A stretch of DNA of 64,000 nucleotides from an uncultured Acidimicrobiia bacterium (GTDB lineage Bacteria > Acidobacteriota > Terriglobia > Versatilivoradales > Versatilivoraceae), in contig CAWBAT010000005.1 in assembly GCA_963786955.1 (NCBI GenBank), forward strand, positions 1,408,001 through 1,472,000. The letters run 5' to 3'. A model generated the notes under the pieces. That model saw only the letters and a program-made list of their open reading frames with translations, did no database searches and was not told the DNA's origin. A program made the translations under genes and the position numbers. Shown here one piece after another: positions 5,520-45,288 of the stretch. The stretch's first letter is position 1; every line of letters begins with the position of its first letter.

Positions 5520-5839
5520 GGTTAGAGCCTCCGTACCTAGATTGGATTTTCATCAAACTCACAATGTTGTGAGCGTTACACAAAGACGTGCAAGGCGCCA
5601 ACGCGAGCTTCGTATTTAGCTGACAAAATCAGGCAGGCGAAGAATCAAACAGATCTCGTTCTGACTGATGAGGGTCAAGCTCGTGCCATCAGACCCGACC
5701 CAAGTGAACGCTTAAAGTCCAGCTAGAAGAATGCAGGGTCAAGCGACCCCTGGATCCAAATTCTTTTCGTCGACTTAAGCGGGCGGAGGAGTGAGTCGCC
5801 TTCCCTCTATCCAGAAAAGACCAACCTTATCCAAGAGCT

Positions 5840-5877: not shown

Positions 5878-5993
5878 ATCGGCACTGGTTGCTACTGTAG
5901 TGGTTTATTTACCAATTTGGAAAGTATAACAGAACACCTCAAACTTTGTGGGAAAGAATATGTGCTTCTCTAATCACAGCACACAGGCAGGAA

Positions 5994-8333
5994 TCATAGG
6001 ATTACCTTCACTCGAGACACATTTAAAGGGACTCTGAGGGTATTTGATGAAAGAGATATAGCCTGATCATCAAAGAAGACCTTAGAAGGACTAAACGGTA
6101 GGCGCCAAATAATCGACTCAGGAGGAAACAGGCAAAACTCATTGGAGAGTTCCAGCCAGATTTCTTTCTTGTCAACAGACAAAATGAAATTGATTTTTCC
6201 AAAAGGACTCGGGGCGTTGCAGACGGAAAAAATAGTGCCAGCTTGCAAATGCTCTTTCTGGAGCAAGGGGGTGATTAAAAGAGAACCCTGTTTCTCGACA
6301 AAGAGCAAATTCATGAGCAACAGGATCCATTCGGCGGCGGCCCAGCCGTGATGGCCTTCTCCCATACAACCACCTCCGGTTGTCGGGTGGATTGCTTCTG
6401 GCCAGGTGTAAGTAGGAGTGGCACATTTTAACAAGTATCGAACCACATCCCAGGCTTTGGGGTTACCGCAGGCGAGGTAGCATTGAGCCAACTGAGCGGA
6501 AAGATAACAATTCACGCCAGAATGAAAATGATTCTGAATGAACCCTTGCCCGATTAGATAACGGTCTTCTATCAGGCGGATTGTATTTTGAACTCTGGGG
6601 TGGCGAGGGTCTATTAATTTCAATGGGTAGACAGAACAAAGAGAACCTATGGCACCCGAATCGATTCGACGGCCAGGTGCTGCCGGCAGAAATGGAACTT
6701 CAGAGCTTTGGTCAGATTGCCCCCAAGTCCTTTCGATATCCTTCCAGTAGGCATGGGCATAAGACGTGAGAGCCTGTTCATCCTCTTTCTTGCCCAGCGT
6801 TTGAGCAGCAAAGGCAACGGCTTTTAATCCCGCCAAGCACCAAAAATTATCCCAATAATAATAATCGCTGGGGCCCAAGTGTTCGGCTGAAAATCCCCGA
6901 GGCAGCAGGCCAGCATGTCCGTTGGGTGACTTTGTGGCTTTGTGACGCTTTCGCTCAATCCAATGGGCAGCTCGCAAGAGCGAAGGATAGAGCTGTGCTA
7001 ACAGTTCACGATCACCCGTCAATCGGAAGTGCTCAACCACCACCCAAATCGTTGATCCGTTGGCATCCCACTCACCTTCCTGGAAATTGAAGAACCCATC
7101 CTTCGACTGACGAGTTGGAAAGTGGAGTAACTTTTCCCTGGCCTGAGAGTGAAATCCTAGCTTATCCAAGGCATGGATCATAAAGGCAGAGTCTCGAATC
7201 CAGCAGTCGTCATAGGTCAAGGCACCAGGGGTCATGACTTGGCCGCGATCAAAGATCTGGAGATACATGCGATTGGCCATAAAGGAACGAGTGAGATTTT
7301 GGTCGGGGAACCCGACTTCAGCTCCTGCAGAGAGATGGTCGTGCCATCTGTCGCGAAACTGGCGGCGTACAGCCTGGTAGTTGAAGCCTTCCAATACAGA
7401 CGATGGCGACAGAGAAGGGACGTCTGAAGTCATGGTTAACAGGGCCAGGTACTCCTTTTGTGCTTGAGGTTCCAGCGATATCGTATATTCGACTAACCCT
7501 GTAGCCATACCCATTTCGCAGGAAATTTTCGGACGGGTCTGCTTGGAAGTCCTGATCAAAGAGACGTCACCCTCCTCATAGTTGGAACAATAGACACGAT
7601 CTGGGGCTTCCTCGAGTATCATTGCCATGTGACCATTCACGAGGCAAAGACGATCCTCTTTGAACTCCAAGTGCCGGATCAGGCTGATTCCTTCGGGATT
7701 GTAAGGCCTGAGAGAAAAATAAAACTTCAGTGGCTTGCGATGAGTTCCCCGGTTGACCAGGCGAACACGGACCAGCAGATAGTGTTTATCCCTGACTTTA
7801 GTGACGAACACGCAAGTCTTAACGGCGATCTTCTCTACTTCGAAATGAGTCTTAACTTGCGGGTACTGAGGATGGATACGTTGTTTGACCGATGGTAATC
7901 TGGCCGGAGTGTAAAGATGCCCTTTCAATTCAATCCAATAGTCGAGAGACCATCCGTCCTTCCAGGGAGTGATCAAAGATCGAGGATCTACGATCGCACG
8001 ATGGGAGTTTCCGAGGGCCCCGATGATGGTCCAATTGCGATGGGTGAGATTGATTTGAGGTAGACCGTGTCCTCTTGGAATGTAGCTCTTGCCATTGGGG
8101 TTGAATTGTCGCTCGATCCAGTAAGGCCAAACCCAATCCAAGTTTCCTTGCACAGCGACGGTATTCAAGAAACCTCTCACATGCATCTTTATCCCTAGCG
8201 TAACAAGCTCTTTTGGGATGTGACGGTCTCCCATCGTGCTGAGCCTGGCCACAGCATCCACTATCTCGAGACTTTCGGACTGATCGAATAGCCTGACTGA
8301 CTGCCGAAGCAGGTCCAAGAAGCTCAGCATCAT
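5994..8333 (-). CDS. Six-hairpin (alpha/alpha)6 glycosidase-like protein
   Basis: 779 aa; PGALTYDDCWIRDSAF, GEWDANG, SAEHLG…YYWDNFW and WPEAIHP…GEGHHGWAAAE resemble GH15/GH63/GH78-like catalytic barrels. Confidence 0.7.
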   Translation of the reverse strand: MMLSFLDLLRQSVRLFDQSESLEIVDAVARLSTMGDRHIPKELVTLGIKMHVRGFLNTVAVQGNLDWVWPYWIERQFNPNGKSYIPRGHGLPQINLTHRNWTIIGALGNSHRAIVDPRSLITPWKDGWSLDYWIELKGHLYTPARLPSVKQRIHPQYPQVKTHFEVEKIAVKTCVFVTKVRDKHYLLVRVRLVNRGTHRKPLKFYFSLRPYNPEGISLIRHLEFKEDRLCLVNGHMAMILEEAPDRVYCSNYEEGDVSLIRTSKQTRPKISCEMGMATGLVEYTISLEPQAQKEYLALLTMTSDVPSLSPSSVLEGFNYQAVRRQFRDRWHDHLSAGAEVGFPDQNLTRSFMANRMYLQIFDRGQVMTPGALTYDDCWIRDSAFMIHALDKLGFHSQAREKLLHFPTRQSKDGFFNFQEGEWDANGSTIWVVVEHFRLTGDRELLAQLYPSLLRAAHWIERKRHKATKSPNGHAGLLPRGFSAEHLGPSDYYYWDNFWCLAGLKAVAFAAQTLGKKEDEQALTSYAHAYWKDIERTWGQSDQSSEVPFLPAAPGRRIDSGAIGSLCSVYPLKLIDPRHPRVQNTIRLIEDRYLIGQGFIQNHFHSGVNCYLSAQLAQCYLACGNPKAWDVVRYLLKCATPTYTWPEAIHPTTGGGCMGEGHHGWAAAEWILLLMNLLFVEKQGSLLITPLLQKEHLQAGTIFSVCNAPSPFGKINFILSVDKKEIWLELSNEFCLFPPESIIWRLPFSPSKVFFDDQAISLSSNTLRVPLNVSRVKVIL

Positions 8334-8423
8334 GCTAGATTTGGGTACAGGCTTTATTGAGTTGCACCTCTTGAACGGGATGTATTCGACCCCGTTATGT
8401 GTGTTGCAATTAGGGTTCGAATG

Positions 8424-10864
8424 TTAAACGAGCCTTCTCCATTTCTCGAGGTCCTCTACATCAATTCTGTCGCCCTCTTGCCCGGCCCAAAAGTTAAGGT
8501 ACAATTGATCCCAACCTTTTGTTTCGGCGTAATTCCTGCAATTGAAAGACATCTTCAGACGCATCTCCGGATCATCGACCAATTTCACGATGGCCTCAAC
8601 GACTTGCCTGGAATCACGCCCTTTGGTCACGAAACCGGTCCTTCCATGCTGCACCGTCTCTCGAGGGCCACCTCTGTCTGACACAATGACAGGAACTCCC
8701 GAAGCCATTGCTTCCAGGACCACATTGCCAAAAGTATCTGTCGTGCTGGGAAGACGAAGATATCCGAAGAGGCATAGGCCTGACTCAATTCTTCATCAAA
8801 CAAGAACCCTGTGAATACAACGTTAGGATAAGGGAGAGCCGCCTTCATCTGACCGAGGTAGGGGCCATCACCGACGATGATCAGTACACATTCAGGACGC
8901 TGCTTTGCCAACTCGGCATAAACTTCAGTCAACACATCGAGATCTTTCTCTTTCGCAACCCGGCCCACATAGGTGATCTTGGGTCCACCATTGACTCCAT
9001 ACTTTGCCCAAAAATCTCTATTTCGATATCTGGGATGGAACTGTTCAGTATCCGTGCCGTGAGGAAATAAGCGGAGCTTGGCCGGATCGAATCCCTTCTG
9101 AATTAGCTGATTCCGGTAGAAGCGGGATGGGACATAAACCGCGTCCATTTGTCCGTAGAACCACTGAAGATATTTCCAAGCGGCGTTCTCCATCGAGTCG
9201 TCTTCTGTGTAGTATTGGATGTAGACAGGGAGGTCGGTGTGATAAATTCCTACCAAAGGTAGGTTCAGAAGCTTAGCGGTCGCAAGGGCTGCCAGTCCTG
9301 CCAACCCAGGGGTACTCACAATCAACTCCGTGAATTGCTCGCGTTCACAATACTCAAGAATATCCAGGAATGGGGGGAACGCCAGCGTGATGCTTTCGTT
9401 CTCCGGCAGAGCAAAATGACCGATGGGTTCAAAGTTCTTCACTCTTCCAGGATACGCGGGAGCCGTTTTAGCGAAGGAAATCAAGGTGAGATGATGTCCA
9501 TGCGATTCAGCTTGATGGCACATTTTCTGAACCAGAGTAGTGACTCCATTGACTTCGGTTAACGTGTCCGTAAACCATGCCTTCTTGGACACTGTTTTGG
9601 GATCGGGACGAACCCCCAGAAAGCGTTGACTGACTTCTGAGAGAAATGGTTTATCCCGGTTCTGGTGATAGAACGAAAACAAGTAGGGCGAGATTCCAAA
9701 CAGGATAGGGCCGAGAGCGCTCATGGCTTCGAGGCTGCCGAAAATGCTGCCTGAAGAAAGCTTCTTAACGAATTTCTTGGCAAACTGGAAGAAAAGTCCA
9801 TTCGAAATTTTGCATGCCAGTTCGAAAGTGCGCCGATTCAATTCATCATATCGAGAAGGATCCGCCACAAAATCGTCCTTCAACCAATCCTCCGCAAATA
9901 ATTTTTTTGTCTCTATGGAAACTAATCGTTTGAATTCTTCTTCAGCAGGTTTTTCAGGCCGTCGAATCACTCGCTGGGTGTAATACGAAACCTTGTCTCG
10001 CAGTCTTCCCTGTGGCTTTCCGATGTCAAACACATCCTTCAGAACCTGCTGCAATATATCTGTCCCGCCTTTTGCAAATCGGTCCCGATAGAAGTGATAC
10101 CCAATGCTATACAAACTATGAGCAAAACTAAGTGGGGTGGCATCTAACCCTGCTGCGCTGCCGCAACGGTTCGACACTTCTTCCAAAAATTCCGCATAAG
10201 TGTCGCAGGCATGGCATTCGGTATACCCTTTGGCGACGAAAATCCCACTATGATCGTCAGATCCTCCGGTGAAGCCTTTGATCCAAGGCTGCTCTCCAAA
10301 TGGAATGATCTTGTGACGGGTGGCGATGTCCTGGAACTGCTGGGCGGTCAAATAATGGAGAATGGTCCGTACGAGCTGATTACCCCTCCGGTTCCGGCCA
10401 CCGTTCATTGTTTCAAACACATTGAACAACAAAAGCAGTTTTTCAAAGTGTTCCACAGTGAGACGATCATTGATCCTATAGAGGGGGTGGGCACACGCGT
10501 TCACAATCCCATCAGTATTCAGATAATCCCGAAGCTCATAGATGTTTTGGCGCAAACGTTGGATTTCGTTGAATTGGGATTCACTAATGTTCCAACACAA
10601 GACGTGGACCTTGCAGCCATCTTCCGGGAAGTAGGTCGTGATCTCATTGCTGATAAAGACATCCTTGAGATGGGCAATTTCAAGGGCTCCCTGAATGCAA
10701 TTGTGATCAGAAATCGTGACGAACTGCATGCCGCGCCGTTTGGCGATTTCATAGACGGTTCGGGGCTCGGTATAACACTCTGGAGCGCCAATTCTTCTCA
10801 GGACCCATTCCGTCGGACGATCGGAATACTTTGAATGGACGTGCAGGTCAACTCGTGAAGACAT
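8424..10864 (-). CDS. PHP-domain phosphoesterase fused to a GT4 (GT-B) glycosyltransferase; one -1 frameshift near 8750
   Basis: PHP motifs DLHVHS, ISDHN, H…AHP, GGSDDH; GT4 motifs YHTD, VGRVAKEK, FPS-TTDTFGNVVLEAMASG restored by adding one C to a C-run; RBS aaggag before ATG 10864. Confidence 0.88.
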
Positions 10865-10960
10865 TGGAATATCTCCTTTTCTCTGACTTGCCTCGTTTCC
10901 CAATACCGGAACAATAGAATTCATGACATCGGAATTGTAACAACACCTCGTTGCGTCGGT

Positions 10961-10987
10961 CTTACAGGGGCATGAAGTCTCTGTTAA
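10961..10987 (-). promoter_or_regulatory. Pho-box-like array upstream of PHP-GT4
   Basis: Minus strand TTAAC agagac TTCAT gcccct GTAAG, 11 bp period. Confidence 0.6.
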
Positions 10988-11186
10988 CAACGAGTGTGTC
11001 CCGTAACAATTCACGTCATTGAATTGGAAAGGGATGCGCGCGTTGAAATTCTAAATCTGCGCTTGGGAAGAAAAAAGTATAGGGGCGCAAGGGCCCCCTT
11101 AATTTTTGTTTTGCAGTTTATAGGCAATTCGGAAGAATCACTTGGGCGAGACCAGCATGAAAGCAGATGGGAACAGCAGGGATCCA

Positions 11187-12101
11187 CTACTCCTTAATTC
11201 GTGGAGCGTTCTCAAATCGAGGATTGAAAGCGACGAATTTCTGCGCGTTATTAAAGTAAATGGTTTGGAAGAAATTCGTCGGCAGTAGACCATTCTCTAT
11301 CCGGTACATCGACAATTTACTATCTGGTGCAAGCTGAACACGAAGGTTTCGAAGCGTGTTGCCTCCTATCTTGAACGATCGAAACGTGCCATGGCTCACA
11401 AAGCCTCGTCCCACGACCGTCTGCAAAGGCTCTGGATCGCTGACGGAGTTCATGTCGAATCCCAGTCCCTTGAAGTCACTTCCAAACAAGACGATGCCTT
11501 TAGCTCCAGAGTCCAGGGAGAAAAGTGAAGGGCGGCTTTCATGAGACTGGGGGGGAATTAATACCAATTTACGTTGGGCAGAATCTAGGAGTATGTATAC
11601 TCCTCCGGACAAGCTCTGAGCAAATTCCTCATTCTCTTCGAAGGTAATGGTTTGTGATTGATAGTCCAAAATGAAATTGAACTTCGTCAGAAAATCCTGT
11701 CCCAAGATTCCTTTGACTTGTATCCCTTGAATTTCGGGACCACCATGCGCGAGAACATCCAGATAGTCCACATGCTGGGAGCCCAGTCTAAAGTTTTCTA
11801 TGCGAAAACAAGGAACGACCATTGACCCCGTGGCAGTCAATAACTGATACCGGCGAGCTTCCTTACCGCCGAGTCTGGTAATCAGGGATGGATCGATAAA
11901 GGTAAGAGCTGATCCCGTATCCAAAACAAGGTCATAAGGCCCCGAACCATTGATGGTTACAGGAACAACGATCCAATGACCTGCGACGAGGCGGAAAGGG
12001 ACAGGGGTGCCGGAAAACGAGACAAATACGCAGAGAAACAGACAGGCTGTTATCAAGCCCGCGACTTTAACGAAAATCGATGAGGATGGCTGGAAACACA
12101 T
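11187..12101 (-). CDS. Exported retropepsin-like aspartyl protease with two domains
   Basis: Signal/TM segment; LDTGS and LDSGA motifs; GILGQDFL, GLLPTNFF. Confidence 0.85.
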   Translation of the reverse strand: MCFQPSSSIFVKVAGLITACLFLCVFVSFSGTPVPFRLVAGHWIVVPVTINGSGPYDLVLDTGSALTFIDPSLITRLGGKEARRYQLLTATGSMVVPCFRIENFRLGSQHVDYLDVLAHGGPEIQGIQVKGILGQDFLTKFNFILDYQSQTITFEENEEFAQSLSGGVYILLDSAQRKLVLIPPQSHESRPSLFSLDSGAKGIVLFGSDFKGLGFDMNSVSDPEPLQTVVGRGFVSHGTFRSFKIGGNTLRNLRVQLAPDSKLSMYRIENGLLPTNFFQTIYFNNAQKFVAFNPRFENAPRIKE

Positions 12102-12191: not shown

Positions 12192-12229
12192 ATAACAAAG
12201 AATTAACGTGTCGTTAATAGGATTTTAAT
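12192..12229. promoter_or_regulatory. Pho-box-like four-unit array, orientation ambiguous
   Basis: ATAAC aaagaa TTAAC gtgtcg TTAAT aggatt TTAAT; the TTAA cores read on both strands. Confidence 0.55.
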
Positions 12230-12851
12230 AGAGTAGAGGTCACTGATGTCTAATCGGAATGTTGGGGCTATGGGTAAGCTCACTTGGAGGTATGGTAGGG
12301 TTGAATCGCAAACGCAAAACCAAGAATATTAATCTTCCATCATTGTTGGTCTCCAGCCTGCCTCATACTGGGGCATTGGTCGAAGCAACCTATCGTCGAG
12401 CCTTGAGGTCACCGTATCGCTTCTTCCCCAAGCGAGATCAACTCGTCTGGCTGTTTCGAATCTTGTTAGATCTGATGGACATGAACGAAAGCCGGGGGTC
12501 TCTCCAAGAAGTCTCCGACAGACAAACTAGCAGGAAACAAACTGCGGCGAATTTTTCCTAAGCACCAGCCTCAACAGTGGGTTGTAAATTCCGTGGAGCG
12601 TGCCAAGGTTGACAGGATCTATGGAGCAATGTATCTGCATTTAGCGGATCATGCCATTTCCCACTTCCGTCGCCCGATTCAGAGCAAGGGGATGTAACGG
12701 TGGGAGCATTTTCGCGCCTATCGGTTGATCCAAGGTCCTAGCGCGTAGAAGTTCAGAGCAGGGGAATCATCAAGCTGGTGACTTTATTTTAAATTTCGGG
12801 AAGGGAGTTTGGTGGCTCCCTTCCCCACAAAGATGCTATGGTTTGAATGCT

Positions 12852-14833
12852 TTACTTCAGTCCGGGCAGTGCCCCGTTCTCGGTCCCGATGTAGCCGATC
12901 GCGGATTTCTTTCTGTTGTCCCACTTGGTGCTGACCACGGGTAATACGGAATTCTCGAGAGCTTTCCCGGCAGTAGTGGCTGACTTGATCTGATCTTCTT
13001 CGCCCGAGTGCTGGAAATTGCCCAGAATGTATGCAAACCCATTCAGATCTTCGACTACTTGCAGCCCGGTAGCCTCGGCGTACATCGGTACAGACAGGAT
13101 ACGGGAAAGCTTGCGGTGTCGATGTTAAATGCCCAGACGTAGCTATTGTTACGTCGGCTGGTGTCCTCGCCGATAAACAAGGTGCGAATATTCTCCGCAT
13201 ACTTGAGGTTGTCACCGCCGCAGACCTTATCCTGTTCGCAGCGGTTACCTTCTGCATCCCGGCTGTCTACTTTCCCGTCCGCGCTGTCCAATGCGGGTGC
13301 GATCGGCCAGCCACCTAGCAGTTCGGGAATGCTAGCCATGTTCTTGGCCACGTAACCGCTCCAGATCCAATTGCCATCCGTGTCCTTTTGCCAACCTCTC
13401 AGTTCCAACTCATAAACAGCGCCCCCATCGTTGCGGGCGAGGCGGATGTCGTTCTGGGGATCGGAGGAGGTATCCAGCATGCCTGTCTCGACTCGGGAGA
13501 TTACTACATAGGCCTTCTTGTCTTCGGCATTGTGGGTGACGCCCTCCATCTTGGAAACCGAGCGGTGGCGCCCAACAAGGCGGCATAGCGACGGGTTTCC
13601 AGGAAGGCGGCGGCTTTCTCCATGCCCGACTTGAGCTTTAGCCATTCCGTGCCCGAGTAGGTGATGACCTTTTTATAAGTGGAATCTCCTGGGTCTGTAT
13701 TGCTGACTAGGAACATGTCGCTAAACTTAATGCCACTATCCACGATTGCCTTGATTTCCTCGTCAGAGGCATGGCCCAACCTGATCCAGCTCAGGTCGGC
13801 GCTTCCACCGTTGACAGCGCTTGTCTGGCTCCATTTGGCTGCGTACAGGGTGCCCATGGATAAATCGCCCCAGCTGTCTGCGACAAACATGAATAGACCC
13901 GTGTAACCTCCATCGTCGCCCATGTAGACAGTACGCCAGTCAGGCTGCACATCCGCCAGTTCGCGTGCAATGCGCCCAAGTGCATAGTGCTTCACGACGC
14001 TGGCAGAGCCGTTCCGATTCACTGTCACCTCGGGTACCAAGCCATAGTGGTAGGGATTGGCCTTTGTCTTGTCGCCGAAGTAGTATTGGCTGAAGCTATT
14101 GATGTCGGTGGTATCGTTGGTGCCGCTGGCGGCGGCGATGCCCTCACGAGTCTTGGCATCTGGCTCGTACTCTTCGGACCCCAGGTGGGTATTCCAAGGC
14201 GAGAGGGAAGCGGCGCAGTGGATCCATCCTCCATTGACGTCGGCAAAACTGATGTTGTCGTAGTCCACCACTTCAAGCACTCCCGTCCGCTTATCTTGAT
14301 CTAATTTGGTTAGACCCATGGCGGCCGGAGATCTCCACCATTGGCTGGCATAGGGAGAGGTGAAGTTGGGTAGTTTGGTGGCTGTTCCCGGTATTCGAAG
14401 TGGGTCACCATCGCCAGTCCCCGGTTCTTCGAAGGGCTGGCTGCCTGCCAGCCGGGGATTTCCATCAGGGAGTTGCCATCTGGCGAATCAGAGGCCATCT
14501 GTCCGCTGTTGTCTGTGATGGGAGGTTGTAAACATCAAACAGACCACCAACAACCTTCCCGTTAATCTCATCCGTTGTCCCCATCAGCATGTGGTACTTG
14601 AGAGTAATTGTCTTCGATTTCCCATTCCGGTAGGTGACGATCATCTGTGCCTTGGTGTAGATGTCGGCCTTTTCGTCAACTGAGGACGGCGCTGTCATCC
14701 CGATGAACTCAACAGACTTAACAGGCGCCGAAATGACCATTGATGATGGCGATTCAGCCGCTAGGATTGAAGGTGCCATCACTACACTGAGTGCGGAAGA
14801 CATAGCATGTACAAAGAGCTTCTTGAGTCTCAC
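12852..14833 (-). CDS. phoX: PhoX-family (DUF839) alkaline phosphatase, split by several frameshifts
   Basis: Fragments 14465..14941, 14310..14498, 13504..14319, 13055..13645, 12852..13085; motifs HCAASLSPWNTHLGSEEYE, LGRIARE, YMGDDG, KMEG, LFIGED, AEATG, NFQH; GTG start after aaggagg; signal peptide. Confidence 0.85.
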
Positions 14834-14977
14834 AGAAACCTCCTTTTGTTGCGCTGGTTTCGAAGCCGAGGGCTTCGATTGGTGGAAATATAATTTACGT
14901 GCCTTGGTTGTGAGCGAGGGGAACGACGCTGTTCCCCCCACACCACTGTCAGACGCCCATTAACTTAGACTGATCTC

Positions 14978-15015
14978 TTTACAGGAGTATGAAATGGCCG
15001 TTAATTATTCGTGAA
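14978..15015 (-). promoter_or_regulatory. Pho-box array upstream of phoX
   Basis: Minus strand TTCAC gaataa TTAAC ggccat TTCAT actcct GTAAA. Confidence 0.75.
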
Positions 15016-15141: not shown

Positions 15142-15238
15142 TTGAAGGCCAGAGAGCGGCAGGCATATGATCAGCACGCTAATTTTCCAATCTGAAACTA
15201 GGCATTAAGTTGATTTCCTTTTGAATGGACTGGTGAGC

Positions 15239-16629
15239 ATGCAATCGTACGATCTTATTGTTATCGGGTCCGGTCCGGCTGGACAGCGCGCAGCTATTCA
15301 GGGAGCAAAGTGCGGCAAACGCGTGGCCTTGGTTGAGAAGCGGGCAGTGATTGGCGGGACTTGCATCAATACGGGCACCATCCCAAGCAAGACGATGCGG
15401 GAGGCCGTCTTACACCTGTCTGGTTTCCACTATCAACAGCTCTACGGTGTCAACTATCGGGTGAAAGAAAAGATCACGATGGCAGACCTCGCCTTCAGAG
15501 TGCAGCACGTGATCAAGAGTGAAATCGATGTGACCCAGGCTCAGCTTTCTCGCAACGGGATCGAAGTTCTGGTTGGTACTGCCAGCTTTGTGGATGCCAC
15601 CCACGTTCGCATCCACGATTCTCATGGACAACAGTCAGAATATGAGGCTCAAGTGATCATTGTTGCCACTGGAACCCGACCAGCCTCTTCTCCGAAAGTC
15701 CCGTTTAATAATCGAAACATCATCAACAGTGATCAAATCCTGGGAATGCCGGACATGCCAAAAACGATGATCGTCGTGGGGGGAGGAGTCATCGGAGTGG
15801 AATATACTTGCATGTTTGCCACTCTCGGTGTTCGAGTGATTCTGGTTGAAAAGCGCCCTCGGCTTTTGGAATTTGCGGATACTGAGATGGTTGAGGCTCT
15901 CACTTACCATTTGAGAGACCATCGGGTCACTCTCCGGCTGAATGAAGAAGTGGAAAGCGTCGAAGAGACGCCCGAGGGGGCAGTAGTCGCTAATCTGGAG
16001 AGCAAAAAGAAGATTTCAGGCGATGCCCTTCTTTTCGCCGTGGGCCGACAGGGAAACACGGACGAATTGAATCTTTCTGCCGCCGGCATCGCAACGGATG
16101 CGCGAGGAGGATCTCAGTTGACGCCAGTTACCGAACCAACCAGCCCCACATTTATGCGGCGGGAGACATTATCGGATTCCCTAGTCTGGCTTCCGTTTCC
16201 ATGGAACAGGGGCGCATTGCCGCCGCCCATGCGTTTGGTCTAACGGTTCATTCCAATCCCGCCACTTACCCGTACGGGATCTACACCATCCCCGAGATTT
16301 CCTTCATCGGCAAGACGGAAGAACAACTCACGGATGAGGACGTTCCCTATGAAGTGGGGATTGCTTACTATCGTGAAATCGCCCGCGGGCAAATTCGTGG
16401 AGACACTACCGGACGATTAAAGCTGATTTTTCATCGGGAGACCAAAGAGCTTTTGGGCGTCCATATCATTGGAGAGGGAGCCTCCGAGATACTGCATATC
16501 GGTCAGGCAGTGATGATTCTGAAAGGCGGGATTGAGTATTTCGTGAATACCGTATTCAACTTTCCGACCCTGGCAGAATGCTACAAGGCGGCAGCCTTTA
16601 ATGGGTTGAACAAGCTAGCCAAACTCTAA
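15239..16629 (+). CDS. sthA: Soluble pyridine nucleotide transhydrogenase; frameshift near 16110
   Basis: [19 protein letters not shown] (single-Cys motif typical of SthA), [23 protein letters not shown]. Confidence 0.9.
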
Positions 16630-18619: not shown

Positions 18620-19721
18620 TGATTCGAGCGTTGAAAAGTTCGCCTCTCCTTTCACAAAGCCTCCGGGCCATGCGCCTGGAGATGGGCATGAAGAAATTCG
18701 TAACCCTTCCCAGTGGAGATGAACGGGTCTGAATCACTTGCGCTGACGATCGCCCCAATGACGTATTGATGCGGGAAATCGAGGACCTGGAAAAATTCCT
18801 TGCTCAACACCGTCCTGAATGGTCAGTCGTCCGCTGGATTAATGTCGCTGGTTTGTCGGACATGACAGTCGTTCACGCTTTGGCTACCAAGTATGAATTT
18901 CACCCCCTGGCCATCGAGGATCTTCTCCAGGTGACACAACGGCCGAAAGTCGAGCGATATGGGGGTGATGACAGTGAGATGCGGGCTCGATCGTTCGTCA
19001 TCGTCCGGATGGTGCAAATCAAGGAAGAGCGCCTGCACAGCGAACATATCTCACTGTTCCTCGGCCACAAGACCGTCTTGATGTTCCAGGAAAGGCAAGG
19101 AGATGTTTGGGATGCGATTCGACAGCGCCTGAACGTCAAGGGTTCCTGCCTGCGGAAGAATGACGCCAGATTCCTGATGTATTCACTGACTGGACGCTAT
19201 TGTCGACCACTGCTTCTCGATTCTGGAAGACGATGGCGAACGCTTGGAGGAGCTCGAAAACCTCGTACTTGACCGATCGCTGCGCAATCTTATCGAAGAA
19301 ATTCATCGTATGAAGCGCGAGCTGCTGCGGCTGCGCCGGGGGGCATGGCCCATGCGGGAAGTGGTCTCGACGCTGCAACGCGAGCCGCATGAGTGCATGA
19401 GCAGCGACACTCACGTTTATCTGCGCGATCTTTACGATCATGTCGCGCAGATCATCGACATCATCGAAACTTATCGCGAAATGGGCACCGGATGGACCGA
19501 GAACCTACATGCCTGCTGCCTCCAATCGCATGAACGAGGTCATCAAGGCGTCGACGATCATGGGCACCATCTTCATTCCTCTCACCTTCCTGGCTGGGAT
19601 TTACGGTATGAATTTCGCTGACATTCCCGAACTCAAATGGCACTGGGGCTATCCAGCCTTCTGGGCCGTCTGCGTCACATTGTCTGGTGTGATGTTGGCG
19701 CTGTTCAAGCGTCGTGGATAG
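18620..19721 (+). pseudogene. corA: CorA-family Mg2+/divalent cation transporter, disrupted (start approximate)
   Basis: WINVAGL, HPLAIED, QRPKVE, YLRDLYDH, GIYGMNF, PELKW; in-frame TGA near 18730 plus frameshifts near 19195 and 19505. Confidence 0.8.
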
Positions 19722-19837: not shown

Positions 19838-22697
19838 ATGACTCGATCCTTACAAGCTTCTGATACTATGAATCTTAAGATAAAACACTTTGTCCTCTAC
19901 TCTGTTTACCTCACTTTATTTTTTGCCCCTTCGGCAAATTCGCAAGACTCAGGGTATCCGGTGCAGTTACCTACAGGGAAGGTTCTCGTTGGGGCCCCCG
20001 CCGGCGTCTTTATTTCGGATCTTAACGCATTTCCAATCAACTCGACGAGTAGCCTGGACGGACGGTACGTGGCTTTCTTAAATAACGGCTATGGCCATGC
20101 GGCCTCAGGTTTTCACAAATCCGTAGCCATATATGATCGAGTAACTGGCCACGTTGCTGACTTCACAGACCCAGGTACCGGCCTTCTTTTCGATGGTCCT
20201 GCGGACATCACGACTCCCTTCTACGGAATTGCCTTTAGCTCAACTGGACAAAGGCTGTATGTGTCGGTCGCCTCGACCAAGGACGACGAGACGTTGGGGA
20301 ACCGTACCCAGAATGGTATCCGAATTTACAACGTTCGAGAGCGGGCACTCGACCCAGCGGGCGTGATTCAAATCACTCCCTCAGATGTGCCTCTGCCCAC
20401 AGGTCTCAAGCTTAACAATCCAGCTCCTACTCCATCCGGCATTTGTGTCCGGCCGGATCCTGAAAATCCAGGCGAGGACTTGGTTTATGCTGCCTTGACT
20501 TTAAGTGATGTGGCGGTTGAATTGAGCACCAAAACGGGAAGGGTGAGGCGCCGCTTCAATCTGCACACCCGTTCCGATCGTCCTGCTCTGCCGTCGGAAT
20601 ATCCTTACGCAACCGCAGTGACTCAGGACGGCAAGACTCTTTATGTGATCTCTATAATGGATCTGCAATAGCGGTAGTGGACCTGATCACAGGGCAGGTG
20701 ATTTCCTTGCCCGTCGGAATTCAGCAAATAGGGCCCTCCTCGCCCAGCAGCCACCCCAGCCACTTGGCATTGCACCCATCTGGCAGAGCCGTCTATGTCG
20801 CCGTGGAAAACAGCGACCTGGTCTGCATCATCGACAACAACCCAGCTTCTCCTACTTACCGCACGGTGACCGGGAACCTGGATATCCGGCCTCAAGAAAT
20901 GCGTCGATTGAAACTGCTAGGAGCGGGGCCTAACCACTTGAGCTTTACTCCGGATGGCAAAACGCTCTTTGTGTCATTGGGATTGCTCAATGCAATCGCT
21001 GTGGTTGACTTGAAATGGGACAGCCCTTCCGTTTTTGACCCCGTGGTGAAAGGCTATCTGCCGACGCTTTGGTATCCCCACACCACGGAAGTGAGCCGCG
21101 ACGGAAAAACGCTTTACATGACTAGTGGTAAAGGCAAAGGGACGGGACCCAATCGGCCGAATCGTCCTTACCCAGCAGGTCAGCGACCCGGCGCCTACGG
21201 GCCAACTTTGCTGAAGGGATCGCTGACCAGATTAGCCTCACCGAAATCCAAAACAACCTCGACGCTTTCAGTCAATCCGTGAAAAGCAACAATCAAATTG
21301 ATGAGGCGTCTCTCAGAGCAGCTCAAAAGGCCATTGATTTTAATCCAATCCGGCATGTGATCTACGTCATTAAGGAAAACCGGACTTATGACCAGGTCTT
21401 TGGCGATCTGAAAGGCACAATTTCCGACGAGACTTGCTTGTATTTTGGAGAATCGTTTACTCCCAATCATCACAAACTGGCGCGCGAATTCGGTATCCTG
21501 GATAATTTTTTTGATAGCGCCGAAGTCAGCTTCAACGGTCACACCTGGACGACAGCAGGAATTAACAGCGGCTGGAATGAACAACAGTGGCAAATTAACT
21601 ATTCGACCAAGAACTTCACCTATGACTCGGAGGGCCGAAACAATGACTCTCTGCCGATCCTGCATAACCAGGCTGACGTGGACTCGCCCCAGGGAGGTTA
21701 TATCTGGGACACGGTGACCGCAGCCCGAAAAACCATCGGCATTTACGGGGAGTATTGCGAAAACCCGCCGCAACCCTTGAAATGGCTCGAAAAAGGCGAT
21801 CCACTCCCCTCATACCTGGTCCACCCAGGAATAGGAAAGGATAGCCCGTTTCCCTGGCGTGTGCCACTGTTTGCCGAGCTCGATCCCAACGGAATCGTGA
21901 AGGGTGGCACTGTTCCGACCAAGGGGGTGTTTCAGGGTTCTTTTCAACCTCTCTATCCCGATTTTGACCTCCTCTTTCCTGACATACTGCGCTTCATGAT
22001 TTGGAAGCGAGACTTTGACCGGATCGCAAAAAGACAAAAGCAGACGGGTGAAGACGCGCTCCCAGCCTTCAGCATTGTTCGTCTTGGCAACGACCATACT
22101 CGCGGAGTTGCTCCCGGGGGACCCACTCCCGATGCCAGCGTGGCAGATAACGACCTGGCATTGGGCTGGCTCGCAGAAACCATTTCCGGTAATCCCTATT
22201 ACTGGAGCAACACTGCTATTGTGGCTTTGGAAGACGATGCCCAATCCGGATGCGACCACGTCGATTCCCACCGGAGCATCGCTCTGTTTATCAGCAAATA
22301 CAACAAAGGTTCTCGGCAAACCCAAAGTGTGGATTCCCGCTTTTTAACGACCGCGAGCGCCGTGCGCACAATTGAGGCGTTACTCGGGCTTTCCTCCAGC
22401 AACGTAATGACTGCTACCTCTCCGTTGCTTTTCTCAGAACTGCAGAAAGACCCCTCTCTCTGGCACGGACCGTACAAGGCAGATGTTACTAACCTTGAAA
22501 ATGGTCTCATTTTTCAGGAAGCCACTGGCAAGATTCGCCAAAATCCCGGTTTGCAGGAGTTGGCAGCTTTGACGGCTTCACTCGACATGGAGGAGGCCGA
22601 TCAGGCCGACGCTGAAAAGCTGAACTATATCCTGGAACAATGGGTACGTTTACAGGGCCGCCTGAGCTGCTGCGGCCCTGGAATTCAGCCAAAGTGA
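19838..22697 (+). CDS. Exported YncE-like beta-propeller + phosphoesterase (alkaline phosphatase superfamily) protein; two frameshifts
   Basis: Propeller repeats (DGKTLYV); IYVIKENRTYDQVFGD, TPNHHKLA, NDHT, EDDAQSG.DHVDSHRS; breaks near 20650 and 21230. Confidence 0.85.
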
Positions 22698-25110: not shown

Positions 25111-26217
25111 CTATTCTGCTGGCGTGATGGTGCTGAGGGCTGCCAACGCCTTCGTAGTAACATTTGGCGGTAAAGGAACGTAATTGAGTTTGGGAGCCTC
25201 GTTTTGGCCGTCCACTAAGCACCACCGGAACAGCTCCCGGATCGTCTTTGCTTTTTCGGCGTCGTCATAATTCTTATGGGAGAGGATCCAAGTCAAAGTG
25301 ACGATCGGATAGGAATCATGACCCGCTGGATCTGGGATGAACAGACGCAGATTTTCAGGCAGTTCTGTCTCCGCGAGCGCGGCCGTGCAGCTCTGTTCGG
25401 TCGGCTTGACGAAGTTTCCCTGCTTATTCTCCAGGAGTGCCATTTGTAGACCAAGCTTGCCAGCGAACTCATAACCAACATAGCCGATTGAGCCAATCGA
25501 GTGCTGGATAAGGCCGCGACGCCCTCATTGCCGGAGGCTCGCATCACCAAGCCAGGCCAGTTCACCAGAGTTGCCGGGCCGTGCTGGTCACGCGATTTTT
25601 CGCTGATTGCATCGAGGTGCTTCGTGAACGCATAGGTCGTGCCGCTTTTGTCCTGTCGCACCACGGCAACAATGGTGAGTTTAGGAAGCTTTATGTTTGG
25701 GTTTGTCTTAGCGATCAACGGGTCGTTCCAATCTTTGATCTCCCCGAGAAAGATTCCGGCATAGGCCTTACGCGAGAGCTTCAGCTCTCCCCAAGTCAGG
25801 GAGGTTATAAGCGAGTACTACACTGCCGGCGGTTACAGGTAGCAAGAGTGCTCCCCCAGGAACCTGAGAGATCATCTCGTCACTCATGGCCGCATCGCTT
25901 GCCCCAAAGTCTACTTTATCTTCATCTTTAACACTCTTTCCAATAAACCGCCGTACGCCTTCTCCACTGCCGACGCTGTCGTAGCTGATGACCGTTTTGG
26001 GGTGATTGCTCTGGTAGGTCGCAAACCAGTGTTTGTAGAGCAAGGAAGGAAAAGTCGCTCCCGCTCCCTTCACCAGAACACTACCTGCTGGTGCCGTGGA
26101 GTCGGCCTTTCCTTGATCCAGCCCTGAACAGGAACTTAGCGTCCACAAAAGAGCAGCCGTCACTAGCAAAGGCACTGCACGTGTCAAAACCAAGGGGTTC
26201 TCTCTAACTGAATGCAT
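25111..26217 (-). CDS. pstS: Phosphate-binding lipoprotein PstS (third copy); frameshifted
   Basis: Lipobox LSSC; GAGATFP, SVGSGEG, DFGASD, RQDKSGTT, GNEGV, YPIVTLTW. Confidence 0.88.
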
Positions 26218-26357
26218 CGTACTTCCCTCTTTTCAATGAGTATGGCTGCCGCCCCCACCTCTACATTCAATGACAGCGGCTGTCAGCGAGTTAATCCAGG
26301 GCATAACGCTAAGCCGAACATTAGAGCGTAGTGGACTTGCATTTGAAGCGGTCTCTT

Positions 26358-27201
26358 CTAACTGAATTCTCCGCTGATGTAATCCTTAGTGTGCTTTTCC
26401 TTGGGATTCTGAAAGACTTGCTTAGAATCGCCGAACTCTACAAGTAGCCGGTGCGCCCACCCTCGGCAGTGTCTACGTACAGGAAACCGGTTTTGTCGGC
26501 CACGCGCTGTGCCTGCTGCAGGTTGTGGGTTACGATCGCGATGGTGTAACGTTTTTTAAGTTCGAGCATTAGCTCCTCGATCTTGCGGGTAGCGATAGGA
26601 TCCAGTGCAGAACAGGGCTCGTCCATAAGCAAAACTTCGGGGTCTGTGGCGATGGCCCTAGCGATGCAGAGGCGCTGTTGCTGCCCACCGGAGAGCGAGA
26701 GCCCGCTCTTGTGGAGTTTGTCTTTTACTTCATCCCAGAGTGCAGCGCGCTTCAATGCCTCTTCGACTTTCTTCGGGATGTCTCCTTTATAGCGGTTCAA
26801 ACGAAGCCAAAGGCGACATTATTGTAGATACTGGTGGCGAAGGGGTTAGGCTGTTGGAAGACCATGCCGATAAAACGCCGAACGGCGACAGCATCTACGG
26901 AAGTATGATAGATATCTTTACCCCGGAAGCGCACATGGCCTTTGAATCGAAAGCCGCGCACAAGGTCGTTCATCCGGTTCAGGCAACGGAGCACCGTGCT
27001 CTTGCCACACCCGGAGGGTCCGATGAAAGCCGTAATGGAGTTCTTCTTGATGGGAATGGTCGTGTCACGAACGGCTTTAAAAGTCCCGTAGTGAAGTTCT
27101 TTGATGTGACAGTCAATAACAGTATCCCCGGGATCTGGCGCTGTCAGAATTTTACTCGTGCCGGTCCTGTCTTTACCCATATTCGTTGCACTGGTCATCA
27201 T
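26358..27201 (-). CDS. pstB: Phosphate ABC ATPase PstB (operon 2); frameshifted
   Basis: [32 protein letters not shown], …KDYISGEFS*. Confidence 0.92.
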
Positions 27202-27211
27202 ATCAACACTC

Positions 27212-28164
27212 CTATTCACGGATCTGTTTGCGGGACAGACTCTGCCCCGCAAGATTAGTCACTAACACCAGCAACACCAGAACCAACGCCGCTGCCCAAG
27301 CGAGTTCAACTTGATTCTCAAAAGGCATACCTGCAAAGTTGTAGATCAGCACAGCCAGAGAGGCCGTCGGCTGCATGAGGTTTACGTGGCCACGCGAAGC
27401 GATCCAGTAATTGCTGAAAAGCGCGGTGAAGAGCAAAAGGGCCGTTTCCCAGCCGCGCGGGCCACGGCTAGCATGACGCCAGTCAAAATCCCCGGAAGCG
27501 CCGTCGGAAGCAAAACCATCCAGACCGCCTGAGTATTGGTCGCTCCCATGCCGATTGCTGCCTCCCGCATTCTCGCCTGCACCATGCGGATGGCGTCTTC
27601 TGCCGTCAGGATAATTGTCGGCAGCATCAGAATGGACAAAGCGGCCCCTCCTGCAAATGCCGAGAAACCACCTGTGAGAAGAACCAGGACGCCATATGCA
27701 AAGACCCCGGCCAGGATCGACGGGAAACCCGTCATGACTTTGGCGGCAAACCGGACCGAGTAGCCAAACGGCTCTCTTTCTCGGCCTGCGCCAGAAATAT
27801 GGCGCTGAAGATGCCAATCGGCACCTATTATGGTTGCGAGGGCAACCATAATCAGTGTGCCGACGATGGCGTTCCCGAACCCGCCCCCAAGCTCTAGCGG
27901 TGCTGGCGGCAGCTGTGTAAAGAGGGAGAGGCTCAGTTTCCGTCCGCCTCGCCATAAGAGCATCCCAACTACCGAGAATAGCGGGATCAAAGCAAGGAGG
28001 GTCATCCCAGCGACTAGCCAAGTCATCATGAAACTGAACAGGGTTCGGGGACGCCGCAGAGACCTCTCCAGCTCTGGGAAATCTACATCGGTGAGCGGCC
28101 CATAATCCGGCTCAGTAGGCTGCGTCATGAGCAGTTGCTCTGTGGTGACATCGTGCCGGGCCAT
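27212..28164 (-). CDS. pstA: Phosphate ABC permease PstA (operon 2); frameshifted
   Basis: GGGFGNAIVGT, PSILAG, EAAIGMGA, ETA.LLFTA. Confidence 0.9.
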
Positions 28165-30321: not shown

Positions 30322-30618
30322 ACCAAGTCTCCTTTCACTCAAATCCTTTAATGAATGTTCGCCAGCCAAGCGGATGACTCTTGATCGAACGGCGCTGGAA
30401 AAGGGTTCATCTCATACCCCTGAATTGAATTTCAGGGGATGATCAGACTCGTGGAGGAATTGCCCTTTTCGTCGCCATCATCACCGTTGAGAAAATTCTC
30501 CTTCGCCTAAACTCGACCTTCGATCATCTGGTTGTTGAGATACGACAGATTGTCTGAGGTTGCGTCCCCTTTTCAGGGCACGGATTGCCTTTCGGAAAGC
30601 CTACAATGCCATAAGGCT

Positions 30619-30645
30619 ATGAAATTAATATTAACTCTGCGTGAA
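30619..30645 (-). promoter_or_regulatory. Pho-box array upstream of pst operon 2
   Basis: Minus strand TTCAC gcagag TTAAT attaat TTCAT. Confidence 0.7.
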
Positions 30646-35932: not shown

Positions 35933-35974
35933 AGAAAACCTCTATGCCGCATTCGTCCACCCTGACATAGGACG

Positions 35975-36012
35975 GTTAACAGGATATGAAATCCGTATTA
36001 ATTTGAATTGAA
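35975..36012 (-). promoter_or_regulatory. Pho-box array upstream of ppk1
   Basis: Minus strand TTCAA ttcaaa TTAAT acggat TTCAT atcctg TTAAC. Confidence 0.75.
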
Positions 36013-37970: not shown

Positions 37971-37981
37971 GGGACCTCCTC

Positions 37982-39795: not shown

Positions 39796-39820
39796 AAACC
39801 TTTCCTTATTGAGATCTTTA

Positions 39821-39958
39821 AGGTAGGGACGGCCCGCTGGGCTGTCCGCGACGCGACCATCGGTCGCGCCCTGCCATTCCGAAATGTTCAATCTTCAGGT
39901 GACGCGCCGCTGCGCCGTCCACCTAAATCTCAAGATGGGGGGCAACGCGTCCCTATCG
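39821..39958. repeat. GTAG-type REP-like cluster inserted between pstC and pstA
   Basis: ggtagggacggcccgctgggctgtcc, gcgaccatcggtcgc, …cgcgtccctatc hairpins. Confidence 0.6.
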
Positions 39959-39972
39959 CAGATCGCTAATGA

Positions 39973-40977: not shown

Positions 40978-41079
40978 GGCAGTTGATCTGACCTGGAAAG
41001 AGAGGCTACAAAGGATCGGTAAGGTGATGAACTCTACAGCCGCCCTGATCCTTAAGTGCAGAAGCTTCAGGCTTACGGC

Positions 41080-41961: not shown

Positions 41962-42006
41962 AAATAAAGCTCCTTATCAAGCATAAATTAGGGATATCTC
42001 ACTGAT

Positions 42007-42044
42007 GTGAACTAAATGTTAAATTTGTGTTAATTTTACATTAA
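42007..42044 (-). promoter_or_regulatory. Pho-box array upstream of pstS operon 1 (strongest in the window)
   Basis: Minus strand TTAAT gtaaaa TTAAC acaaat TTAAC atttag TTCAC. Confidence 0.85.
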
Positions 42045-45250: not shown

Positions 45251-45288
45251 GTTACAGGAGTATTACAAAAAGATGAATCTTTGATGAA
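45251..45288 (-). promoter_or_regulatory. Pho-box array upstream of phoB (putative autoregulation)
   Basis: Minus strand TTCAT caaaga TTCAT cttttt GTAAT actcct GTAAC. Confidence 0.75.

Follow-up and report, generated by a model that had tools for sequence, protein, structure and literature searches.

A Pho-boxed PHP-glycosyltransferase fusion and a GH15-like protein of an acidobacterium, a probable system for replacing phospholipids by sugar lipids in phosphate starvation

Swapping phospholipids for sugar lipids is a major microbial route to survive phosphorus scarcity, and to our knowledge the enzymology of this swap is known mainly from Alphaproteobacteria, in the form of PlcP plus Agt. Here, we ask what a phosphoesterase domain and a glycosyltransferase domain accomplish in a single polypeptide encoded behind a Pho box and ahead of a glycosidase-like gene, as found in an uncultured bacterium that the Genome Taxonomy Database places in the Acidobacteriota (GenBank assembly GCA_963786955.1). 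The window, i.e., the whole stretch of DNA analysed, covers 64,000 nucleotides (nt) of contig CAWBAT010000005.1 (positions 1,408,001 to 1,472,000), and all coordinates below refer to it. Both genes lie on the minus strand: gene A encodes a PHP-type domain fused to a glycosyltransferase of family GT4, and gene B encodes a protein of 779 amino acids (aa) resembling glycoside hydrolases (GH) of family GH15. On the whole, the pair is probably a two-gene operon for replacing phospholipids by sugar lipids in phosphate starvation.

In the proposed mechanism, a PhoB-type regulator would activate genes A and B under phosphate limitation. The gene A product, a presumed peripheral cytoplasmic enzyme of about 813 aa, would use its GT4 domain to load diacylglycerol (DAG) with glucose or glucuronic acid taken from a UDP-sugar, and the resulting phosphorus-free glycolipids would stand in for phospholipids once phosphate runs out. 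The PHP domain would supply the DAG beside the transferase. It could take the phosphate off phosphatidate or cleave a phospholipid at its phospho-head group, and would thus do the job of the unrelated PlcP in Alphaproteobacteria. The gene B product would act on the α-glycosyl head group by trimming, transfer or removal.

The GT4 domain is assigned a role as glycolipid synthase because of its homology to a genetically characterised relative. By searching with a Desulfovibrionaceae member of the fusion family, we found an 816-aa protein of O. (Desulfovibrio) alaskensis G20 (cluster with ABB40406.1) that is colinear with gene A at 37% identity over 706 aa (E 3e-175). According to the accessible sections of Bosak et al. 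(2016; PMC5193443), a Dde_3613 transposon mutant of D. alaskensis G20 grew normally at 500 µM phosphate and poorly at 10 or 2 µM, and it lacked all glycolipids (MGDG, GADG) under phosphate limitation. The same sections report envelope changes in G20 mutants and treat Dde_3613 simply as an Agt homologue; the terms PHP, phosphoesterase and phospholipase have no occurrence in the main text of the paper. The 816-aa protein, very probably Dde_3613 itself, has the three-part architecture, the length class and the PHP metal residues of gene A, and Dde_3613 is likewise tied to phosphate limitation, while its host belongs to a different phylum.

The role of the family in phosphate-starvation glycolipid formation is already in print, and the locus is therefore not the new phosphorus-sparing glycoconjugate system that a reading of the sequence alone (hereafter the sequence-only reading) had proposed, although the glycolipid role itself is supported by the G20 homologue. 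Among the open-access papers listed in our searches, "Dde_3613" occurs in a single one, none connects a PHP domain with Agt, with PlcP or with the synthesis of glycolipids, and none deals in a relevant way with a GH tied to MGlcDAG in Acidobacteria. Three elements appear not to have been described: the proposed use of a fused PHP domain in place of the non-homologous PlcP, the family of GH15-like partners, and a recurring three-part module.

Both Rossmann-type halves of the GT4 (GT-B) fold are recognised by Pfam models, the second one across a break in the reading frame. Glyco_transf_4 matches gene A residues 438-608 (E 6.5e-24), and Glycos_transf_1 is split between profile positions 14-101 in the main frame (residues 626-708, E 9.6e-14) and positions 104-170 in the other frame (8424-8741, E 4.8e-18). 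The NCBIfam matches include GlcNAc-PG synthase as the best one (86 bits), LTA glycolipid-anchor transferase and alpha-MGlcDAG synthase. The GT4 fold is common to gene A and the lipid GT4 enzymes (alpha-MGlcDAG synthase NF049988, GlcNAc-PG synthase NF053787, IagA/BgsA NF053513); unlike gene A, these enzymes have no PHP domain, and the GT4s of the families studied here score 86-162 bits against their cut-offs of 400-480. Judging by homology, the GT4 domain of gene A quite likely makes glycosyl-diacylglycerol.

The limits of gene A were established from its homologues. The listed long open reading frame (ORF; 8627-11014) begins at an upstream GTG, whereas the start that matches all homologues is the ATG at 10864 on the minus strand (MSSRVDLHVHS), preceded just 5' by AAAGGAGAT. 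The homologue N-termini, all of the form M-x-x-[KR]-[AV]-D-L-H-V-H-S, coincide with this ATG; position 10987, previously taken as the start, is instead the edge of the Pho box. At the other end, 22 of 22 aligned homologues read on as FVFPSTTDTFGN (FVFPSTTDTFGNVVLEA) precisely where the frame of gene A breaks, and the CCC run at 8748-8750 is therefore where gene A has lost its frame by one base. Full-length homologues measure about 790-850 aa, and gene A without the break would encode about 813 aa.

Contigs from four public runs were compared with the window over 5900-11300 (5.4 kb). Each run contains a small share of the stretch (at most 0.19) and is informative on relatives of the strain, not on its habitat. 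The single indel over the 5.4 kb was one extra G behind 8747, present in all three runs that cover the site (X1, X2 and X5; X3 does not reach it). Contigs from an RNA library also overlap parts of genes A and B, with DNA carry-over being possible. At least six other genes of the window are split, namely CorA (18766-19621), a pyridine-nucleotide oxidoreductase (15221-16629), the second pstS, pstB and pstA (25293-29178), and ppk1 (33799-35932). The many genes in 12784-36000 that are read in two or three overlapping pieces point to frequent single-base indel errors in the assembly and not to pseudogenisation on a large scale. Because the extra base occurs in all three covering runs and other genes are split too, the most likely origin of the break in gene A is an assembly error at a homopolymer. 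A real one-base deletion, making gene A a pseudogene of a decaying operon in this strain, is unlikely. Such a deletion would agree with the loss of the last 107 codons, including the conserved EAMASG...GGPxE part, and with the same-genus genomes G001 and G002, which have no full-length match and imply that the gene is dispensable in the lineage. Apart from the run contigs and the other split genes, the position of the break in a homopolymer and the shifted frame, which is open and conserved up to the normal stop, speak against it.

Regulation by phosphate is suggested by the surroundings of the operon. The window is a phosphate-starvation gene island of the acidobacterium. Besides pstSCAB-phoU, it carries pstS2, ppk1 and a second pst operon in fragments, along with a PhoX fragment, a porin and a regulator of the OmpR/PhoB type (PhoB-like gene at 44328-45053). 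The sequence upstream of pstS1 reads TTAATG-N5-TTAACA-N5-TTAACA-N5-TTCACA, and similar phased hexamers precede pstS2 and ppk1, giving a Pho-box unit of TT[AC]A[CT]N hexamers at 11 bp spacing. As direct repeats with this spacing upstream of pst and other phosphate genes, the predicted boxes of the window fit the PhoB type. A search pattern, TT[AC]A[CT][ACG]-N5-TT[AC]A[CT][ACG], was defined from the pstS1, pstS2 and ppk sites alone; 14 of its 102 genome occurrences fall within the window, compared with 1.15 expected. After the grouping of overlapping sites into 96 groups, all five groups with at least three phased repeats were located in the window.

The sequence-only reading had described a Pho-box-like array ahead of gene A; the box proved real, in the form of a single dimer rather than an array. 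The chance of one dimer in the 322-nt leader of gene A on one strand is about 0.003, as calculated from the genome pattern densities. Orthologues in four related loci (L002-L005) keep the box 110-141 nt upstream, with the sequence TTAACAaattcTTCACG in L002, TTAACAtccatTTCATGcgccgTTCACA in L004, and TTAACA-led near-matches, read by eye, in L003 and L005. Across phyla, the pattern was found upstream of gene A homologues in 6 of 89 loci, a count that is uninformative because Pho boxes differ between phyla. A scan for sigma-70 promoters gave three sites versus 7.8 expected from shuffles, none of them usefully placed, and Rfam had no match in the whole window.

The fusion is widespread, with at least 552 confirmed relatives among species-representative genomes of the Acidobacteriota, Planctomycetota, Verrucomicrobiota, Kiritimatiellota, Lentisphaerota, Desulfobacterota and Bacteroidota. 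The N-terminal module alone retrieved 482 cluster representatives at E<=1e-30; among the best 150 of these, the match starts within the first 30 residues in nearly all, in proteins of mostly 580-850 aa, and the fusion is therefore old and fixed. Within the window's own family its distribution is patchy: in a search of 41 genomes, it was full-length in G000, G003, G006 and G019 and present as fragments in G017, and no full-length copy was found in G001 and G002.

The neighbourhood survey of PHP-GT4 homologues that had been suggested earlier was carried out on 90 loci (88 distinct) by clustering ORFs and by tblastn with the phosphate genes of the window. It showed phosphate genes near a part of the loci and the GH partner beside few of them, as detailed below. 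The neighbours included PhoU (7), PstB at more than 50% identity (5), PstA (5), PhoB-like (10) and PhoR-like (5) proteins, Ppx (5 distinct, including two close relatives), OlsF-like ornithine-lipid synthases (3-5), radical SAM proteins (8) and DUF2334 (6). At least one phosphate or phosphorus-free-lipid gene lies within 8 kb in about 23 of the 88 distinct loci, which is far above chance for genes with one or two places per genome.

The metal-binding motifs of PHP domains are an HxH near the N-terminus, followed by H, E, H, H and a final DxH. In gene A these correspond to H8, H10, H54, E74, H87, H126, D203 and H205, which are invariant in 23 sequences of the fusion family, in 30 sequences including Desulfovibrionaceae members, and in a second clade of five deeply divergent sequences (23-24% identical). 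The PHP site of the fusion is, judging by these alignments, under selection. With Pfam, the N-terminus gave no PHP match at E<=0.01, and the NCBIfam CehA/McbA metallohydrolase domain matches residues 4-128 weakly (E 3.7e-4, 20 bits versus a cut-off of 80). The AlphaFold model of residues 1-430 has a mean pLDDT of 82.7, exceeding 90 across the barrel (approximately residues 1-250). With this model, Foldseek retrieved 19 chains at E<=1e-3, those listed being all PHP-domain proteins: the best was the RNase AM PHP domain (7ug9, E 3.8e-7, TMt 0.60), and the others were TM0559 (2anu), BAD_1165 (3e0f), EndoQ, PolC/PolIII PHP domains and Cv1693. The PHP fold of the N-terminal domain is thereby confirmed at the level of the predicted structure. 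Together with the invariant metal residues and the Pfam GT4 models, this result bears out the earlier claim of a PHP-phosphoesterase/GT4 fusion. Between the two domains, the model shows a bundle of helices (residues 307-416). It contains a conserved hairpin of moderate hydrophobicity at about 373-403, where the hydropathy peaks at 1.44 (residues 373-392), below the transmembrane level. A stand-alone PHP paralogue of about 340 aa (G000:C5:315934-316446) is 35% identical to gene A residues 4-169 and, unlike the fusion, occurs in the majority of the genomes of the family.

PlcP belongs to the calcineurin-like metallophosphoesterases. Gene A, with its PHP fold and without a Metallophos family in Pfam, is not a member of the PlcP family, though it may work like PlcP. 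As described in the accessible sections of Sebastian et al. (2016; PMC4796936), the PlcP-Agt pathway obtains DAG by phosphatidate dephosphorylation or phospholipase C activity, after which Agt adds a sugar, and the two genes often form one operon behind a Pho box; these sections describe no GH partner. The logic proposed for gene A equals that of the PlcP-Agt systems of Phaeobacter, SAR11, Sinorhizobium and Agrobacterium, in which the phosphoesterase yields DAG and the glycosyltransferase adds glucose or glucuronic acid. However, PlcP and Agt are two separate proteins, whereas the phosphoesterase of gene A has a PHP fold and is fused to its transferase. The chance that the PHP domain provides DAG from phosphatidate or phospholipids is, in our estimate, close to even, if slightly below.

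Gene B begins 90 bp past the true stop of gene A (8424). No Pfam family matches its product, and the NCBIfam model TIGR01577, "oligosaccharide amylase", matches weakly (E 8.2e-10, 37.9 bits versus a cut-off of 820). Neither a signal peptide nor a hydrophobic N-terminus nor a segment at the transmembrane level was found in the protein, and the glycosidase-like, leaderless 779-aa product noted previously thus stands. The structure model (pLDDT 90.5, pTM 0.91) consists of four parts: N-terminal helices, a β-sandwich, an (α/α)6 barrel and a C-terminal β-sandwich. Foldseek ranked GH94 phosphorylases first (8hob, E 1.6e-22, TMq 0.58), along with GH15 enzymes. In the VIA-align comparison, the GH15 chains came out on top (Z 33.3-36.1, 541-557 residues aligned, root-mean-square deviation (rmsd) 2.8-4.2), with dextran dextrinase 9ju0 (Z 36.1), glucodextranase 1ug9 (Z 33.4, 552 aligned, rmsd 2.9) and the bacterial glucoamylase 1lf6 (Z 33.3). 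Below them ranked GH125, GH65, GH116, GH63 and GH78, as well as 1,2-β-oligoglucan phosphorylase (Z 27.4), so that among the families GH15, GH63 and GH78, with which a comparison had been recommended, GH15 is the closest.

The modelled gene B protein accordingly has the N-terminal β-sandwich and the (α/α)6 catalytic barrel of GH15 enzymes, and it has in common with the GH15 hydrolases 1lf6, 1ug9 and 9ju0 this two-domain build and the YxxxWxRD region. It differs from them in its extra N-terminal helices and C-terminal β-sandwich, in an identity of 12-15%, and in having no Pfam GH15 match. At the sequence level, phmmer against PDB sequences retrieved only 7vma (E 0.37), and the family profile gave only marginal rows (E 0.23-0.65), including 1ug9 at E 0.65 over the YxxxWxRD region. 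The acidic residues D381, E421, D423, E484, D495 and E646 are invariant or nearly invariant in the family. The family is large, with 3756 matches at E<=1e-3 among 8000 candidates scored, mostly annotated "hypothetical protein", and at least 431 relatives in one scan; in the ESM Atlas, 28 of the 30 clusters nearest to gene B have no Pfam family. The best structural match being a GH15 transglucosylase keeps transfer by gene B possible. An action of gene B on the α-glycosyl head group is put forward tentatively, with less confidence than the role of the PHP domain.

Neighbourhoods of the GH15-like family were surveyed in 80 metagenome loci (L100-L179). A GT4 gene lies directly beside the GH15-like gene on the same strand in 36 of them; by cluster membership, where 1.2 kb or more of downstream sequence was available (61 loci), a GT4 is present in 33. 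For two sampled partner GT4s, alpha-MGlcDAG synthase (NF049988) was the best and a full-length match, under the cut-off (E 1.9e-47 and 3.2e-45). Long PHP-type GT4 forms occur in seven of the 80 loci, one of them 67% identical to gene A and the others 23-29%, and two of these seven loci also contain pstSCAB-phoU. A separate protein of 800-900 aa with Phosphodiest and Exo_endo_phos domains was found in 16 loci, 13 of which have a GT4. This protein is one of the recurrent neighbours of the family, the others being GpsA and VTT/DedA membrane proteins (examples of the neighbours are L166 5759-6793, L158 6171-6905 and L153 6734-9145). Thus, according to the domain assignments, the GH15-like protein, a lipid-type GT4 and a phosphoesterase recur together, the phosphoesterase being supplied by unrelated folds. 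No other indirect argument speaks as strongly as this recurrence for a phosphoesterase and a transferase that work in one pathway.

A more far-reaching proposal is that gene A is a single-polypeptide head-group swapper, in which the PHP domain removes phosphate, or a phospho-head group, from a glycerolipid of the membrane and passes DAG directly to the GT4 domain, as a fused, non-homologous replacement for PlcP-Agt. It would form part of a wider module found in many phyla, in which a GT4 of the MGlcDAG-synthase type is joined by a GH15-like enzyme and by a phosphoesterase (PHP or Phosphodiest plus Exo_endo_phos (EEP), depending on the lineage), with the GH15-like enzyme reversing the swap or extending the head by transglycosylation. 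We regard this proposal as speculative and rather doubtful in its full extent.

Several observations weigh against the reading of the locus as a phosphate-starvation glycolipid operon. The equation of ABB40406.1 with Dde_3613 is very probable, being drawn from a matching description (supplement) and the organism and not from a locus tag, and at 37% identity a common family does not prove a common product. The NCBIfam GT4 scores of gene A are far below the cut-offs (86 bits versus 480), and general GT4 families score too. The nearest solved PHP folds (RNase AM, Cv1693 and EndoQ) act on nucleotides or RNA, and none of them is a lipid phosphatase. Hydropathy revealed no membrane-spanning segment in the proteins of genes A and B. 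The Pho box of gene A is one dimer only, and the search pattern has 102 occurrences in the 5.65-Mb genome, counting both strands, versus about 82 expected from base composition, which places single dimers near the background; the gene A dimer alone is therefore modest evidence. The run contigs are 90-99% alike to the window around gene A and therefore come from relatives rather than from the same strain, and a frame break that is real in the strain would deprive gene A of the last part of the transferase domain.

The pairing of the two genes is also limited. A homologue of gene B adjoins only 4 of the 90 PHP-GT4 loci; the partner is therefore lineage-specific when seen from the fusion side, and the idea of the GH protein as a universal partner of the fusion was rejected. 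Among the 41 related genomes, the fusion was found in five and gene B in three (G000, G006 and G019), each time beside gene A; gene B was sought and not found in G003, which is 99% complete and has the fusion, nor was it found in G017, which has the fusion as well. Finally, in 11 of the 80 loci the gene immediately upstream of the GH15-like one encodes GpsA, and these 11 have no GT4 cluster member, an arrangement that fits a soluble glycosyl-glycerol pathway too.

GpsA makes glycerol-3-phosphate, and phosphatase domains fused to a synthase are a known design, as in sucrose-phosphate synthase and glucosylglycerol-phosphate synthase. A compatible-solute pathway, which the sequence-only reading had named as the alternative, would have the GT4 domain glycosylate glycerol-3-phosphate or 3-phosphoglycerate, the PHP domain remove the phosphate, and gene B later hydrolyse the solute. 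The GpsA-linked loci bear on it in both directions, since they place glycerol-3-phosphate synthesis beside the GH15-like gene, yet contain no GT4 cluster member. PHP enzymes commonly hydrolyse soluble phosphomonoesters, the solved relatives act on soluble substrates, neither protein has a membrane anchor, and sucrose-phosphate synthase models match the C-terminal GT4 piece of gene A weakly, all of which would suit a solute. On the other hand, the recurrent context consists of Pho boxes, pst, phoU, ppx and OlsF-like lipid genes rather than osmotic genes, and for the two sampled GT4s that accompany GH15-like proteins, alpha-MGlcDAG synthase is the best model and is matched over the full length. 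Furthermore, in the accessible sections of the G20 study, the homologue mutant loses membrane glycolipids specifically and has a fitness defect tied to low phosphate, not to salt. The alternative is weakened by the lipid phenotype and the phosphate context, and we consider it improbable, slightly more so than a decayed gene A.

A second alternative retains the glycolipid product of the GT4 domain and lets the PHP domain act on a soluble phosphoester, e.g., the UDP by-product or another nucleotide, pulling the reaction and recycling phosphate, with DAG coming from another enzyme. The closest solved folds point in this direction (RNase AM 7ug9, Cv1693 2yb1 with AMP and phosphate bound, and EndoQ), as do the weak NCBIfam match of gene A to 3',5'-nucleoside bisphosphate phosphatase (E 0.055) and the presence of another candidate phosphoesterase gene in the window, of the PF04185 type (21279-22697, first 24 residues only). 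These fold matches are weak, however (TMq 0.26-0.37), and say little on the substrate, and the alternative offers no explanation for the conservation of the helical module that separates PHP from GT4. The Exo_endo_phos domain family includes sphingomyelinase-type lipid phosphodiesterases, and it is a Phosphodiest plus Exo_endo_phos protein that takes the place of PHP in the 16 GH15-like loci mentioned above. A nucleotide-directed PHP domain is thus not a likely explanation, though as probable as a real deletion in gene A.

According to a third alternative, the pair would build or trim a phosphate-free surface glycan or lipid-linked oligosaccharide in phosphate starvation instead of a DAG glycolipid. 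Membrane proteins of the VTT/DedA type lie upstream of the GH15-like gene in 10 of the 80 loci, with a further 9 in a second cluster, and in one GH15-like protein (P0227) a GtrA flippase domain forms part of the polypeptide. The wording of source annotations is "glycosyltransferase involved in cell wall biosynthesis", exopolysaccharide-type GT4 models score too, and envelope changes were reported for G20 mutants in the accessible sections of that study. However, the same sections give a direct lipid phenotype for the G20 mutant, signal peptides and membrane segments are absent from both proteins, and no polysaccharide export or polymerase genes were seen among the recurrent neighbours of either family. 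Envelope glycopolymer remodelling is consequently the least probable of the explanations considered, with very little to be expected of it.

If the glycolipid operon is the correct explanation, the fused family may be the main route of lipid replacement in soils, sediments and anoxic waters. A PHP domain that supplies DAG would explain how the phyla with the fusion manage without PlcP and would add a lipid substrate to the PHP superfamily, and the GH15-like partner family would gain its first functional context. In addition, a usable Pho-box pattern was obtained for this acidobacterial lineage. The features of the operon and of the other Pho-box sites are compiled in Table 1.

Table 1. Positions of the parts of genes A and B, of adjoining sites and of Pho-box sites in the window
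Feature	Position	Strand	Basis
PHP-type metal-dependent phosphoesterase domain, gene A residues 1-265	10070..10864	-	invariant metal residues, model, Foldseek
Poorly modelled linker (266-305) and helical bundle, gene A residues 266-430	9575..10069	-	model, conservation, hydropathy
GT4 glycosyltransferase, gene A residues 431-706: N-terminal Rossmann half and start of C-terminal half	8748..9574	-	Pfam, NCBIfam
CCC run with reading-frame break, one base short versus homologues and related environmental contigs	8748..8750	-	alignment, contigs
C-terminal 107 codons of gene A in shifted frame (STTDTFGNVVLEAMASG...), stop codon 8424-8426	8424..8747	-	Glycos_transf_1 profile 104-170, E 4.8e-18; aligns with homologue C-termini
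90-bp spacer between genes A and B, without terminator-like site	8334..8423	-	
Gene B: 779-aa predicted cytoplasmic GH15-like six-hairpin protein, family without Pfam model	5994..8333	-	structure model, searches
Terminator-like hairpin about 245 nt downstream of gene B	5735..5750	-	consensus match only
Pho-box dimer with 11 bp spacing (TTAACA-N5-TTCATG), 107-123 nt upstream of gene A ATG	10971..10987	-	TTAACAgagacTTCATG; pattern search
Terminator-like hairpin and T-run after the upstream aspartyl-protease gene, dividing that gene from the gene A promoter region	11081..11098	-	
Three-repeat phased TTAA-type array	12203-12230	+	between two-domain aspartyl-protease gene (11187-12101) and PhoX-side ORFs
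Three phased Pho-box hexamers upstream of ORF 14465-14941, co-directionally ahead of PhoX fragment 13504-14319	14988..15015	-	
Three phased Pho-box hexamers upstream of pstS2 (29266-30369)	30618..30645	-	
Three phased Pho-box hexamers ahead of ppk1, a gene split into three pieces (33799-35932)	35974..36001	-	
Four phased Pho-box hexamers upstream of pstS1, pstSCAB-phoU operon (37287-41961)	42006..42044	-	

Of the five genome-wide arrays with at least three repeats, all but the plus-strand one at 12203-12230 clearly precede a phosphate gene. In the adjoining PhoX region, only ORF 13504-14319 supports PhoX: ORFs 14465-14941, 13055-13645 and 12784-13257 had no PhoX match even at E<=1, and ORF 14465-14941 had no Pfam match. 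A Pho-box dimer at 45288 lies in the intergenic region between the regulator gene and the divergent ORF 45611-47224 on the plus strand, whose 537-aa product matches GH39 weakly (E 4e-7).

A 578-aa protein adjoins the PHP-GT4 gene in 13 of the 90 loci, mostly from Verrucomicrobiota and Kiritimatiellota (L021, L024, L027, L029, L030, L037, L044, L046, L048, L049, L055, L064 and L073). It matches the GH67 middle domain weakly (E 4.3e-4), has no NCBIfam match, and is by its predicted family a second, unrelated glycosidase-like partner of the fusion. The 537-aa ORF of the window was tried as a counterpart of this partner from other phyla and rejected, since tblastn found it in none of the 90 loci.

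Further genes concern phosphate and lipids in a wider sense. Of the 472-aa product of ORF 21279-22697 (plus strand), only the first 24 residues match the PF04185 (phospholipase C / acid phosphatase) phosphoesterase family, and it is possibly a further phosphate-scavenging enzyme, or a divergent one. Near the Pho island, a GT2 glycosyltransferase (48555-49715, plus strand) has the hopene-associated HpnB as its best NCBIfam model (162 bits, cut-off 379). Elsewhere in the genome, an OlsB-like N-acyltransferase (G000:C4:352846-353292, L180) is 37% identical to the C-terminal part of an OlsF-like protein, and aminolipid synthesis may be a second phosphorus-free lipid route in this organism.

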